Part shown: in pieces, positions 47,971-55,555 of the stretch
How the letters are laid out: every line of letters begins with the position of its first letter
Numbering within the stretch: position 1 is the stretch's first letter
Notes under the pieces: model-generated
Told to the model about the DNA's origin: nothing
Databases searched by the model: none
Seen by the model: only the letters and a program-made list of their open reading frames with translations
Assembly (NCBI GenBank): GCA_944387485.1
Contig: CALXFC010000001.1
Span: forward strand, 4,179-68,178
From: an uncultured Clostridia bacterium
Lineage (GTDB): Bacteria; Bacillota; Clostridia; TANB77; CAG-508
Direction of reading: 5' to 3'
Length of the DNA stretch: 64,000 nt
Translations under genes and position numbers: made by a program

Positions 47971-48000
47971 TTGACAAATAGTAATAAAAAGGTCTATAAT
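47971..48000 (+). promoter_or_regulatory. sigma-A-type promoter of tracrRNA (TTGACA-N18-TATAAT)
   Basis: TTGACAaatagtaataaaaaggtcTATAAT; predicted TSS about 48007. Confidence 0.6.
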
Positions 48001-48007
48001 AAAAATG

Positions 48008-48132
48008 TACAGGGAAGTACAAAATTATATCATATCAAAGTAGAATAGGTTATTACAATAAGACCTGGATTTTATTGTAAAATCTATGAGTCGTAAAGCT
48101 CTAGCTGCCGTCATAGGCAGCTATCTTCATAT
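48008..48132 (+). ncRNA. tracrRNA: tracrRNA of the type II-C system (anti-repeat 48026-48061, nexus and stem-loops to about 48130)
   Basis: ATTATATCATATCAAAGTAGAATAGGTTATTACAAT pairs antiparallel with the minus-strand-sense crRNA repeat at 34 of 36 positions (including G-U pairs) with a 2-nt internal mismatch. Followed by AAGACCTGG... and hairpin GCTGCCgtcataGGCAGC, parallel to the N. meningitidis tracrRNA (ACAAUAAGGCCGUC...AACGCUCUGCCCC). Confidence 0.65.
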
Positions 48133-48146
48133 AAGGAGGAATTAAT

Positions 48147-51100
48147 ATGGGGTACAGAATAGGGTTAGATATTGGAATAACATCAACAGGTTGGTCAGTA
48201 GTAGAAGATGATGCAGAAGGAAAACCAATAAGGATAATTGATTTAGGTTCCAGAATATTTGATGCAGCAGAGAAACCAAAAGATGGTTCACCACTTGCAA
48301 AAGATAGAAGAGATGCAAGAGGATTAAGAAGAAGGGGAAGACGTAAGAAACATAGAATAGAAAGAACTAAAAGATTATTAAATAATTATAATATAATAAG
48401 TAAAAAAGAGTTGGAAAAAATGTATGAAGATTATAAATTCCAATTTAATATATATGAATTAAGAGTTATGGCTCTAGATCAAAAAATAACTAATAAAGAT
48501 TTAGCTAGGGTTTTATTGAATTTTGTTAAAAGAAGAGGATACAAGTCAAATAGTAAATCTGAAGAATCAGAAAATAAAGAAGCGGGAAAATTACTAACAG
48601 CTACTAAAGAAAATGAAAAACTTATGGAAGAAAAAGGCTATCGTACAATAGGAGAAATGTACCTAAAAGATGATAAGTTTAAATTAAAAGACAAAAATGG
48701 TGATTTTATTTTAGATTCAAAAGGACACAAGATATTAAAGGTAAGAAATACAACAGATGATTATAAAAGTACCGCACTTAGAAAATTACTTTTAGAAGAA
48801 ATTGAAAAAATATTAAATAAACAAAAAGAATTTAATTCTGCTATAACAGATGAATTTATTGAAAAATATATTAATATATTCTTATCTCAAAGAAGTTTTG
48901 ATGAAGGACCAGGAAGTCAAAGTCCGTATGCAGGAAATCAAATAGAGAAAATGCTTGGAAATTGTACTTTTGAAAAAGAAGAAAAGAGAGCTCCAAAAGC
49001 TACATATACATTCGAGTATTTTAAATTATTACAAGATTTGAATCATATAAAAATAGAAAAAACAGAATTAGATGATAATAAATCAAGGAAAAGAACAAAA
49101 AGAGAATTAACAGAAGATGAAAAACAAAAAATAATAGAATTGGTAAAAGATAAAGCAACTGTTACATATGATGCTATAAGAAAAGTATTAAATTTAGGAA
49201 CAAATGAGAGATTTAATATGCTTACATATAAGAATACATTGATATTATCAGAAGAAACTAATAAGGAAGTTGAGAAAGATAATAAATTAAAAGAATTTGA
49301 AAGCTATCATAAAATAAAAACAGCATTAAATAGAGTTGAAAAAAATTATATAAACAAATTAACAAAAGAAGAACTAAACAGTATTGGATATGCACTAACT
49401 GTTTATAAAAACGATAATAAAAGAATAGAGTACTTGAAGGAAAATACTGAACATCTATCTGATGAAGCAATAAACGAATTGCTTAAATTATCTTTCACAA
49501 AAGTTGGAAATTTATCTATTAAAGCTATGGAAAAGATTATTCCTCATTTGGAAAAAGGACTTACTTATGATAAAGCTGTTGATGAAGAATATGAAGATTT
49601 TAGAGGAAGTGTAAATACAGAAAAGAAGAGAAAATTACGTTTGAAAGATTTAGAACAAGATATATCTAATCCAGTTGTTAGAAGAGGGCTTTCACAAGCT
49701 GTAAAAGTTTTAAATGCTATTACTTTAAAATACAATAAAAAATATGGAAAGCCAGATGTAGTTGTAATAGAGCTTGCAAGAGATATGGGCAAAAATTTTG
49801 CGGATAGAAATAAAATTAGAAAATCTCAAGAAGAAAATATGCAAAAAAATGAAAAAGTAAAAGAAAGAATAATTGAATTAGGAAAGACAAATCCAACAGG
49901 ACAAGATATTGTCAAGTATAAATTATGGCAAGAGCAAGATGGATTTTGTGTTTATTCAGGTAAAAAAATATCAGTTGAAGATTTATTTACAGAAGCAGTT
50001 GATGTTGACCATATAATCCCATATAGTATGTGCTTTGATGATACATATAAAAATAAAGTGTTGGTACTTTCAAGTGAAAATAGACAAAAGGGAAATAGAG
50101 TTCCATATCAATACGAAAAAGAAATTGGAAGAAATTTAGAAGAATATGAAGTAAGAGTAAATAATATTATAAAAAATCCAAGAAAGAGAGATAGACTTTT
50201 AAAAGAAAGTTTTACTAGAGAAGATGCTAAAGAATGGAAAGATAGAAATATTCAAGATACTCAGTATATATGTAGACTTATGTATAATTTAGTAAGAAAT
50301 CATTTAGAGTTTTCAGATAATCCTAATTTCGTAAGAAAAGTTTGGACAGTTAATGGTTCTGTTACAGCACATATAAGAAAAAGATTAGGTATAGATAAAA
50401 CAAGAGATAATGACGTACATCATGCAATAGATGCGACTGTTATTGCTATAACAAGTCAAGATATGATTAATAAAATAACAAAATATTATCAATATGTAGA
50501 TGGAAAATATATGAATAACAAAGGAGAGTATATAGATTTAGAGACAGGCGAAATTTTAGATGCTAAGAAGTATGAAGAAGATAATGGAATATATTTCCCA
50601 GAACCATGGCATAATTTTAGAAAAGAACTTGATATAAGGGTAAATTGTAAAACAAAAGAAAGAATTATTGAATGTTTAGAAGCTGAAAAAATCTATACAT
50701 ATGAAGATTATGATGATGTAAGACCAATTTTTGTATCAAGGATGCCTAGAAGAAAAGTTACAGGAATGGCACATTTAGAGACAATTAGAGGACTAAAAAC
50801 AGAGGATGGAAAGCTAAAAACTATAACAAAAACCGAATTAACTAAATTAAAGTTAAAAAATGGCGAAATTGAAGGCTATCCAGAAAAGAATAAGAAAGAT
50901 GATAAACTACTATATAATGCGTTAAAAGAACAATTGATAAAATATAATGGAGATGCAAAAGAAGCATTTAAGGAAGATTTTTATAAACCTAGAAAAGATG
51001 GAAGTAGAGGACCTTTGGTTAAAAAAGTTCAAATAGAGGCAAATGCAACGTTAGGTGTACAATTAAATCATAGTAAAGCTTTTGCAGGAAATGGTAATAG

Positions 51101-52848: not shown

Positions 52849-52895
52849 AAAAGAAGAAATTTATGATAAAAATTAAATAGAAAGAACTGCTTTTC

Positions 52896-52942
52896 AAAAA
52901 AAGAAATCCTGTAAATAGTTGATTTTACAGGATTTCTTTTTG
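52896..52942. terminator. bidirectional rho-independent terminator between cas2 and the CRISPR array
   Basis: A-tract, AAAGAAATCCTGTAAAtagttgatTTTACAGGATTTCTTT (16-bp perfect stem), then T-tract. Usable on both strands. Confidence 0.75.
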
Positions 52943-52947
52943 GGAAT

Positions 52948-55555
52948 ATTATATCATATCAAAATAAAATAGGGAATTACAACTCCAGAACTTGCTGCTA
53001 AATCTAAAAGGCCATTATATCATATCAAAATAAAATAGGGAATTACAACTAAAAACTTGAAAATAGTGTTATTAACGCAATTATATCATATCAAAATAAA
53101 ATAGGGAATTACAACTCTTTTGTTGTCTATACTTATTTCATTGTTATTATATCATATCAAAATAAAATAGGGAATTACAACAAGGAATAATTGTAGAAAT
53201 TGGTGGAGATAATTATATCATATCAAAATAAAATAGGGAATTACAACTGTAAGAAGTGTCATAATCAAGAACACTTCATTATATCATATCAAAATAAAAT
53301 AGGGAATTACAACCCATCTATAGCGTTTTTCATCATTTGCCTTATTATATCATATCAAAATAAAATAGGGAATTACAACAATCTTTAGTTTCAACCATTT
53401 GTGATGCCAATTATATCATATCAAAATAAAATAGGGAATTACAACAAATGAATTGCTAACAATAAAGCAGATACAATTATATCATATCAAAATAAAATAG
53501 GGAATTACAACAAAGAGGCGAGCCAGTCTGTAAAACTGGTCATTATATCATATCAAAATAAAATAGGGAATTACAACTACTTACACTTTCATTTTTAACT
53601 TTCATCATTATATCATATCAAAATAAAATAGGGAATTACAACTACACACATATTACATATCACGAATATTTAATTATATCATATCAAAATAAAATAGGGA
53701 ATTACAACTAGTTTTAATGGTTGGTTTTATTATAGTGCATTATATCATATCAAAATAAAATAGGGAATTACAACAAACGTGCCTCGTATCCGTCTCCTAC
53801 AGGTATTATATCATATCAAAATAAAATAGGGAATTACAACTACTAATTCTATTACTAATAGTATTTCTAGATTATATCATATCAAAATAAAATAGGGAAT
53901 TACAACTTCTAAGGAGGGTAATTATATGAATATTAAATTATATCATATCAAAATAAAATAGGGAATTACAACAAAACCATATGAGAATATTACTCTTTTA
54001 TGATTATATCATATCAAAATAAAATAGGGAATTACAACTTGTTTTTAAAGCTGTTGTTAATATTGTTAATTATATCATATCAAAATAAAATAGGGAATTA
54101 CAACTAGTATTTTGAATGGTTCTAACGTTGATACATTATATCATATCAAAATAAAATAGGGAATTACAACCACTAACTGCCACGTAAAGCTTATAAAACT
54201 ATTATATCATATCAAAATAAAATAGGGAATTACAACATGAATACCAACAAATGGTACCAGAAATTAATTATATCATATCAAAATAAAATAGGGAATTACA
54301 ACGATAGTGGCGACTATAATATATACGGCTTAATTATATCATATCAAAATAAAATAGGGAATTACAACCAAAGAGAAAAACAATGAAAGAGAGATTTAAT
54401 TATATCATATCAAAATAAAATAGGGAATTACAACTCTGTATTAAAAATATAATCATTATCCAAAATTATATCATATCAAAATAAAATAGGGAATTACAAC
54501 TTGCCAAACATATACATATGAACAAATTGCATTATATCATATCAAAATAAAATAGGGAATTACAACTGGTCTTACATCTACTAAGAAATAATCTTGATTA
54601 TATCATATCAAAATAAAATAGGGAATTACAACTATGTCTATCTTCTCTCTTGTAGCTATATTATTATATCATATCAAAATAAAATAGGGAATTACAACTA
54701 TGTCTCTGTTTACAGATGTGTCAGGAAATTATATCATATCAAAATAAAATAGGGAATTACAACGTAAATTAATAATACTACTATTATTAAGATATTATAT
54801 CATATCAAAATAAAATAGGGAATTACAACTATATTTATATGTATTTTTGAGTTAGTTTTATTATATCATATCAAAATAAAATAGGGAATTACAACAATAA
54901 CATAGATAGCAAAATAGCAAATCAAATTATATCATATCAAAATAAAATAGGGAATTACAACCTTAATAATTTTTTTAACAGAAGAAGACCAATTATATCA
55001 TATCAAAATAAAATAGGGAATTACAACATCACAATCTTTGATATAAAATAATCCTCCATTATATCATATCAAAATAAAATAGGGAATTACAACCTACAAA
55101 AGCGGTATTTGTAAATGGTATTTATTATATCATATCAAAATAAAATAGGGAATTACAACTTATGTTTATAAAGTCGTTCATACTCTCACATTATATCATA
55201 TCAAAATAAAATAGGGAATTACAACTAGTTATGTACTTTTTAGGATAACTAAAAAATTATATCATATCAAAATAAAATAGGGAATTACAACTTCCTAACA
55301 AGGTTTATTCCTGTAATTCCAATTATATCATATCAAAATAAAATAGGGAATTACAACATAATTGTGAGCTTCGTCGACAAACATTTTATTATATCATATC
55401 AAAATAAAATAGGGAATTACAACTATGCAGATATTGAATATTACAGAGATGCAATTATATCATATCAAAATAAAATAGGGAATTACAACAACGGTGTGCA
55501 AGTTAAGACTTTTTTTTAGATTATATCATATCAAAATAAAATAGGGATTATATTT
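52948..55555 (-). CRISPR. CRISPR array: 40 repeats of 36 nt (plus strand ATTATATCATATCAAAATAAAATAGGGAATTACAAC; crRNA sense GTTGTAATTCCCTATTTTATTTTGATATGATATAAT), 39 spacers of 29-31 nt; terminal repeat at 55520-55555 degenerate
   Basis: Exact 66-nt periodicity over about 2.6 kb. The repeat in minus orientation begins GTTGTA... like Neisseria/Campylobacter II-C repeats and ends TGATATAAT (extended -10). Last copy ...GGGATTATATTT is diverged. Confidence 0.97.

Follow-up and report, generated by a model that had tools for sequence, protein, structure and literature searches.

A putatively complete type II-C CRISPR-Cas9 immunity locus in an uncultured Clostridia bacterium

In the type II-C CRISPR (clusters of regularly interspaced short palindromic repeats) arrays of Neisseria and Campylobacter a promoter lies in each repeat, and transcription starting inside each spacer has been shown experimentally (PMC7038990; PMC12080349). 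For the II-C array of C. cellulolyticum an extended -10-like repeat end was noted, with CRISPR RNAs (crRNAs) that run antisense to the cas genes (PMC7038990). New spacers enter II-C arrays at the transcription-distal end, the cas-distal end being old, and the II-C terminal repeat is degenerate in its first ~15 nucleotides (nt), which is one means of not producing a useless "extraneous" crRNA (PMC12080349). Here we analyzed a locus located at positions 47971-55555 of a 64,000-nt stretch of DNA from an uncultured Clostridia bacterium (contig CALXFC010000001.1, assembly GCA_944387485.1; hereafter, the window). Judged by its sequence, this is with high confidence a complete chromosomal type II-C CRISPR-Cas9 adaptive immunity locus that has been acquiring spacers.

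Architecture of the locus and its Cas9

The locus begins with a -35 box at one edge and finishes at the end of the last repeat at the other; between them lie a trans-activating crRNA (tracrRNA), three cas genes, a leader and a CRISPR array, with the following features (aa, amino acids):

47971..48000, plus strand: tracrRNA promoter, TTGACA-18 nt-TATAAT, 12/12 consensus
48007..48020, plus strand: predicted 5' hairpin of the primary transcript, GTAC-AGGGAA-GTAC, starting ~7 nt past the -10 box
48024..48059, plus strand: anti-repeat of the tracrRNA, 5 mismatches to the repeat, supported by pairing and covariation
48060..48131, plus strand: tracrRNA scaffold, with AAGAC nexus stem-loop (48062-48092), GTCGTAAAGCTC linker, stem-loop 2 (48102-48123) and ATCTTCATA tail
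48133..48139, plus strand: cas9 ribosome-binding site AAGGAGG, read from the sequence, 9 nt beyond stem-loop 2
48147..51548, plus strand: cas9, 1133 aa, supported by TIGR01865 and full-length structure alignments
51636..52535, plus strand: cas1 (type II, NMENI subtype), 299 aa, TIGR03639
52528..52848, plus strand: cas2, 106 aa, TIGR01573 and Pfam CRISPR_Cas2
52849..52947, no strand assigned: leader (spacer-integration side), 99 nt, with a hairpin at 52898-52941 and GGGAAT abutting the first repeat
52948..55519, minus strand (crRNA sense): CRISPR array of 39 identical 36-nt repeats and 39 spacers
55520..55555, minus strand: degenerate terminal ("extra") repeat, 7 mismatches, at the old end of the array

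The open reading frame (ORF) listing of 46000-57500 showed cas9, cas1 and cas2 to be co-directional, and neither csn2 (II-A) nor cas4 (II-B) was found among all ORFs of at least 50 aa in that interval; those ORFs that fall within the array are translated repeats. Comparison with NCBIfam assigned Cas9 to TIGR01865 (802 bits, cut-off 100), Cas1 to TIGR03639 cas1_NMENI (282 bits, cut-off 120) and Cas2 to TIGR01573 (92 bits), while Pfam recognized HNH_4, RuvC_III and the Cas9 alpha-helical lobe in the first and CRISPR_Cas2 in the last. Every defining feature of type II-C that can be looked for in sequence was found.

When Cas9 was searched against all Protein Data Bank (PDB) sequences the top match was AtCas9 (21dz/9wac), with 806 bits over its full length; the GeoCas9/ThermoCas9 group followed with ~735-747 bits and NmeCas9 with ~555 bits, the II-A enzymes scoring far lower (St1Cas9 246, SaCas9 228 and SpCas9 63 bits). 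Since the top-scoring solved structures are all II-C and those of II-A lie at 63-246 bits, the protein falls in the II-C branch, a placement made by PDB bit scores. Identity, counted in the alignments over the first ~970 residues, is ~42% to AtCas9 and ~41% to Geo/ThermoCas9.

The RuvC residues D8 (GLDIGI), E542 (IELAR), H758/H759 and D762 (HHAIDA) and the HNH residues H622 (DVDHIIPYS) and N645 (SENRQKGN) are all present, and the arginine-rich bridge helix begins with RRRGRR at residues 61-66. The catalytic motifs line up with those of GeoCas9; moreover, when ten family members displaying 51-78% identity were aligned with it, the catalytic positions showed no variation or next to none. With these residues, Cas9 is predicted to cut DNA flanked by a protospacer-adjacent motif (PAM), using D8, E542, H758/H759 and D762 in RuvC and H622 and N645 in HNH.

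Within a 5.8-billion-protein collection the exact Cas9 protein was present on a few contigs (NCBI, ENA and Logan), accompanied by one variant 99% identical and then by graded relatives from 88% to ~50%, all of them metagenome-derived. At least 120 relatives come from gut metagenomes, and metagenome-assembled genomes labelled Clostridia bacterium carry cas9 genes 72-77% identical in differing genomic contexts. As far as the collections searched show, this Cas9 is therefore an unstudied ortholog, although a patent or some large screen of orthologs may already include it. With ~42% identity to the nearest solved structure and a well-supported guide-RNA design it may help screens for new PAMs; at 1133 aa it is not especially compact.

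In two sister lineages (L008 and L009) Cas1 and Cas2 are 95-97% identical to those of the window and Cas9 83-88%, the C-terminal (PAM-interacting) part of Cas9 being the most diverged (77-78%, with approximate domain borders). On these sequences the effector Cas9 appears to be evolving faster than the adaptation module.

An earlier description of this DNA made from its letters only (the sequence-only reading) agrees with most of the above. All the parts lie where it had put them, the ORF, family, repeat and promoter scans being in accordance. The 1133-aa Cas9 does have intact RuvC, bridge helix and HNH motifs (the residues and the RRRGRR stretch listed above), and cas1 and cas2 stand without csn2 or cas4, the ORFs of 46000-57500 being accounted for. 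The size given as about 50 aa above that of NmeCas9 is in fact 51 aa above it. The comparison with characterized orthologs that it proposed returned II-C enzymes as the best scoring (AtCas9, Geo/ThermoCas9, then Nme), and its suggestion of an uncharacterised ortholog gains from an identity of ~42% at best to any solved Cas9, near-identity to a solved enzyme not being seen.

The tracrRNA and its junction with cas9

We compared the locus with 13 related loci taken from species-representative genomes and metagenome contigs, in which Cas9 identity goes from 99% down to 44%. The promoter at 47971-48000 is the best site in 47500-56000 according to a consensus scan and its TTGACA box is conserved across the related loci; we read it as the promoter of the tracrRNA, and it probably serves the whole cas operon as well. 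An anti-repeat is found upstream of cas9, on the cas strand, in 13/13 loci. The one of the window (48024-48059) is the sole repeat-like copy outside the array on either strand of the 64 kb when up to 10 mismatches are allowed, the next-best copies having 11-12.

Against the repeat in crRNA sense, GTTGTAATTCCCTATTTTATTTTGATATGATATAAT, the anti-repeat is paired at 34/36 positions (31 Watson-Crick and 3 G-U), with a 2x2 internal loop at repeat nt 9-10 and a cofold energy of -66.7 kcal/mol; this crRNA:tracrRNA duplex would load Cas9. Repeat and anti-repeat covary among the loci: where G4 of the repeat becomes A, the anti-repeat C becomes T; where A7 becomes G or C, the partner T becomes C or G; and in L015 and L016 a block of 8 nt is changed on both sides. 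The internal loop is kept in all loci compared. The scaffold behaves alike, as 97.7% of the cells in its 21 stem pairs are standard pairs in a 13-sequence alignment and nine pairs display two-sided changes, compared with 30-41% paired when the 3' partner was slid by 1-3 columns as a control. Furthermore, the GTCGTAAAGCTC stretch between the two scaffold stem-loops is invariant across loci and the whole tracrRNA transcript folds with z = -4.9. Because the TTGACA box is conserved and the scaffold stems covary, the tracrRNA is assigned to the plus strand, and hence the crRNA is read from the minus strand.

Transcription from the promoter would start at ~48007 and give a primary tracrRNA of ~48007-48131, composed of the 5' hairpin, the anti-repeat and the two-stem-loop scaffold, both the start and the 3' end being predicted positions. 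The promoter-driven tracrRNA on the cas strand that had been read from the letters is thus borne out by the 12/12 promoter and by the covariation; of its proposed extent, 48026-48132, the anti-repeat and scaffold are there indeed, but the predicted start lies further upstream, at ~48007, and includes the 5' hairpin.

This hairpin, at 48007-48020, is retained in 13/13 loci with differing stems. In 9/12 loci the G-rich block of the repeat, in the version proper to each locus, recurs in its loop (AGGGAA(T) in one version, ATATGGAAC in L014 and TAGAGAAG in L015), complementary to crRNA repeat nt 8-13, the site of the internal loop in the anti-repeat duplex. Taken with the bases next to it, the block resembles a shortened second copy of the repeat joined to the anti-repeat (AGGGAAGTACAAA versus AGGGAATTACAAC, 11/13), and the hairpin may be either a remnant or a functional element.

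The tracrRNA and cas9 lie close to each other in the 11 loci whose Cas9 is at least 66% identical to that of the window: from the conserved ATCT end of the tail to the cas9 ATG there are 18-32 nt, and the tail after stem-loop 2 reads TCTTCAT(A/T)T, without a T-run, and no space is left for a promoter. In the window, UCUUCAUAU comes after stem-loop 2, with the cas9 ribosome-binding site immediately behind. The most economical reading for the window's clade would be one promoter for both products, a partial stop at stem-loop 2 yielding the tracrRNA while part of the transcription probably reads on into the cas9-cas1-cas2 mRNA. This arrangement of the junction was not found described in the II-C literature searched, thus its novelty is neither claimed nor excluded.

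A different account, which we consider possible but doubtful, is that termination of the tracrRNA at stem-loop 2 is efficient and that cas9 is expressed from an unrecognised promoter or by read-through of the upstream GIY-YIG gene, so that no co-transcription takes place. Stem-loop 2 is a G+C-rich hairpin of 8 bp with UCUUCAUAU after it, Firmicutes can terminate transcription with the help of factors, and the interval from the GIY-YIG gene to the promoter at 47971-48000 holds no clear terminator. The more distant loci, in addition, keep tracrRNA and cas9 as separate units: in L015 and L016 (Cas9 54-56%) the scaffold is followed by an additional canonical terminator, then by spacer DNA of ~100 nt, and a promoter-like site precedes cas9 (L015 5864-6000; L016 ~5877-6000), and in L004 (Cas9 44%) a T-run follows stem-loop 2. 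However, the 9 nt from hairpin to ribosome-binding site in the window leave room for no promoter, a consensus scan of 48001-48146 found no promoter-like site of at least 10/12, and the compact tracrRNA-cas9 junction is common to the 11 loci, all of which argues for the single promoter with partial read-through.

One may go further and regard the tracrRNA as the 5' leader of the cas9 mRNA. Cas9 bound to the scaffold, which ends 9 nt from the cas9 Shine-Dalgarno sequence, would then feed back on cas9 translation or mRNA processing, the 5' hairpin possibly taking part in crRNA pairing or in regulation; we deem such autoregulation in cis improbable. In S. pyogenes repression of a promoter by a long tracrRNA is known, and the mechanism in cis, if true, would differ from it. 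The fused tracrRNA-cas9 transcription unit with its 5' hairpin is the only point of the locus that may be instructive as new.

Array, leader and spacer turnover

By exact scan, 39 exact copies of the 36-nt repeat were located from 52948 to 55489, and a fortieth, with seven mismatches, at 55520-55555; 37 of the spacers are 30 nt long and the other two 29 nt. The last nine bases of every repeat, TGATATAAT, make a perfect extended -10 promoter in crRNA sense, and TGNTATAAT (N = A, T or G) ends all six repeat variants seen in the 12 loci with arrays. Transcription of the array would run towards cas2, on the minus strand. Given this conservation, and by likeness to Neisseria and Campylobacter, each spacer is probably transcribed from the TGATATAAT box of the preceding repeat, with a start a few nt into the spacer; arrays of this Nme/Cje type are also characterized by a crRNA maturation independent of RNase III. 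The predicted crRNA consists of a minus-strand spacer followed by GUUGUAAUU, its repeat part beginning with GUUGUAAUUCCCUAUUUUAUUUUG.

In the terminal repeat all seven mismatches are confined to crRNA-sense nt 1-12, that is, the part paired to the tracrRNA and held by Cas9, while the promoter half is intact; the cas-distal terminal repeat is degenerate in all related loci. The copy at 55520-55555 matches the published II-C pattern (PMC12080349), and an extra repeat deprived of its tracrRNA-pairing half would produce no useless crRNA and still promote transcription of the oldest spacer. The array of 40 repeats announced by the sequence-only reading stands as to its 39 spacers and 40 copies, with the amendment that the fortieth is degenerate, and the likeness it saw to Neisseria/Campylobacter repeats holds in the extended -10 box at the repeat end.

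A phage from human faeces, MT835718.1 (L020 1514-1546), was considered as bearing a repeat copy, an anti-repeat or a decoy, and rejected. The match covers 22 nt of the promoter half of the repeat (ATTATAACATATCAAAATAAA) and is intergenic; on the other strand the site reads TGTTATAAT before a gene, an ordinary extended -10 promoter.

The leader hairpin at 52898-52941 has 18 bp, its energy is ~-22 to -25 kcal/mol whichever strand is folded, and it stands between an A-run and a T-run; covarying stems are found in 13/13 loci. Such a structure is a putative bidirectional terminator, which would end the cas operon and stop array transcripts running antisense into cas2. GGGAAT, GGGAT or GGAAT abuts the first repeat in 9/13 leaders, all of closer relatives (Cas9 at least 66%), and no such motif is present in L009, L012, L015 and L016; we consider it a candidate leader-anchoring sequence for spacer integration.

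Evidence for acquisition comes from a second strain (L006), with a Cas9 99% identical, the same flanking genes and 34 spacers. Spacers 37-39 of the window are spacers 32-34 of L006 and spacer 17 of the window is spacer 17 of L006; the remaining 35 and 30 spacers, respectively, differ, including all the cas2-side neighbours. As only the cas-distal trio and one internal spacer are shared, the cas-distal end is old and new spacers enter beside cas2; Cas1-Cas2 insert them at the cas2-proximal repeat, as the two-strain comparison shows. This turnover indicates that the locus has been acquiring spacers, in line with the "actively used" locus of the sequence-only reading.

The internal spacer 17 (54039-54068) is identical in both strains and has the same index from the leader, with different spacers around it; independent acquisition of the same protospacer or inter-array recombination could account for it. 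Within L006, spacers 13 and 18 (ASAFNIDEA) correspond to the same coding site with synonymous differences only, and spacers 8 and 19 (NGTY(K/T)IFDF) to another with one residue changed as well. Being variants of the same coding sites, these pairs indicate that the same protospacers were sampled from variant phages.

Spacers had no match elsewhere in the window or in the fetched loci beyond chance words, of up to 19 nt in the window, which agrees with the lack of self-matches read earlier. The arrays of the window and L006 were compared by BLAST with 50,697 phage records and 72,556 plasmids, giving chance-level results (E ~0.02-1) except for spacer 1. Exact 20-30-nt seeds from spacers 9, 13 and 19, from L006 spacer 27 and from the L006 13/18 pair found nothing in IMG/VR, and neither did a codon-degenerate pattern for the twice-sampled ASAFNIDEA site. 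A single match to this pattern in a Joint Genome Institute (JGI) metagenome was unrelated and of higher G+C, and was discarded.

The match of spacer 1 (52984-53013), the newest, is to the tape-measure gene of a phage tail, with 27/30 positions in the Clostridium perfringens plasmid-like element NZ_CP120752.1 (L019 3000-3029) and 28/30 in IMGVR_UViG_2926549205_000005 (L021 3834-3863); a scan of IMG/VR with the 23-nt core of this spacer gave no other family. The PAM-side flank (3' in crRNA sense) is GAAGATTT at both targets. These are mutually homologous and each is mismatched at the PAM-adjacent base; we take the GAAGATTT flank as a lead and not as a PAM.

Several points weigh against a complete and working II-C locus. 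Its "functional" status is a judgement from sequence. Rfam CRISPR-DR34 matches every repeat on the minus strand below threshold (24 versus 35 bits), and no Rfam tracrRNA family matched. The consensus scan called neither stem-loop 2 nor the leader hairpin a terminator, the latter because the scan requires at least three G-C pairs and a short loop, and for this reason the steps of termination and read-through are our reading of the letters. Finally, the PAM, which was to be obtained from protospacer flanks according to the earlier proposal, could not be derived, since the phage, plasmid, IMG/VR and JGI metagenome searches gave one imperfect protospacer family only, that of spacer 1.

The same searches, with no exact protospacer in public phage, plasmid or IMG/VR collections, would suit a locus that is intact in sequence yet silent or blocked, either unexpressed or under a prophage anti-CRISPR, its array being a historical record. 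We regard this as very improbable: no difference is seen among the 39 working repeats, every reading frame is intact, and the promoter has the perfect consensus and is conserved. Moreover, hardly any leader-side spacer is common to the two strains whose Cas9 is 99% identical, so that, measured against the divergence of strains, acquisition is recent. Scarcely credible is an orientation as in II-A, with the array on the plus strand from a cas2-side leader and the tracrRNA on the minus strand, since, although co-directional transcription was assumed by default without data by Chylinski et al. (PMC3737331) and the leader does adjoin cas2, it is the plus strand that carries the consensus promoter and, downstream of the anti-repeat, the conserved nexus with the covarying stem-loops, the leader holds a terminator hairpin rather than a promoter, the extended -10 box is readable on the minus strand only and the degenerate repeat is cas-distal, as in II-C arrays (PMC12080349).

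Genomic context and comparison with described systems

The cassette taken here as a II-C locus is flanked by argS/GIY-YIG and csoR-copA, the upstream neighbours being GIY-YIG and helix-turn-helix genes and the downstream ones csoR and copA (copper P-type ATPase). Two sister lineages share the argS/csoR-copA context (ArgS 88%, Cas9 83-88%), whereas in other relatives the cassette sits in unrelated genomic contexts, which implies that it moves between genomes. G+C content is 23-33% throughout the window and nearly all genes are on one strand. Just past the last repeat, in the 55556-55610 region, an 11/12 promoter (TTTACA-17-TATAAT, 55579-55607) overlaps the inverted repeat ATACCCC...GGGGTAT in front of csoR-copA; the inverted repeat resembles a CsoR operator.

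Among solved enzymes the closest is that of 21dz/9wac, AtCas9 of Alicyclobacillus tengchongensis (bioRxiv 10.64898/2026.01.30.702744), which aligns end to end with the Cas9 of the window and has in common with it an insertion in the recognition (REC) lobe around residues 170-200. GeoCas9/ThermoCas9 (PDB 8uza, 9ar4) also align end to end (~747 bits). AtCas9 and Geo/ThermoCas9 come from thermophilic Bacilli, and their PAMs are not transferable to the present Cas9.

With N. meningitidis (NmeCas9, PDB 6jdq) the locus shares the NMENI subtype of cas1. Its Cas9 is 51 aa longer than NmeCas9 and scores only 555 bits against it; unlike in N. meningitidis, the host is AT-rich and Gram-positive-like, and the nexus stem-loop has an extra inner hairpin. 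The Nme repeat, as here, has 36 nt, a GTTGTA start and a TGNTA(C/T)AAT end, and the tracrRNA tails are similar, ..GUCGUAAAGCUCU-hairpin-AUCU in the window versus ..GCCGCAACGCUCU-hairpin-AUCG in Nme. The predicted behaviour is also alike, promoter-in-repeat crRNA biogenesis and transcription-distal acquisition being those described for N. meningitidis (PMC12080349, PMC7038990).

The II-C system of C. cellulolyticum H10 (CcCas9; PMC7038990), from a Clostridia-type host too, displays the same order tracrRNA-cas9-cas1-cas2-array. There the tracrRNA likewise lies upstream and has the direction of the cas genes, array transcription is antisense to them and the last nine repeat nt are extended -10-like; CcCas9 has 1021 aa versus 1133 aa here. 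The locus of the window is a textbook II-C system, whose expected working agrees in every point with that of Neisseria, Campylobacter and C. cellulolyticum.

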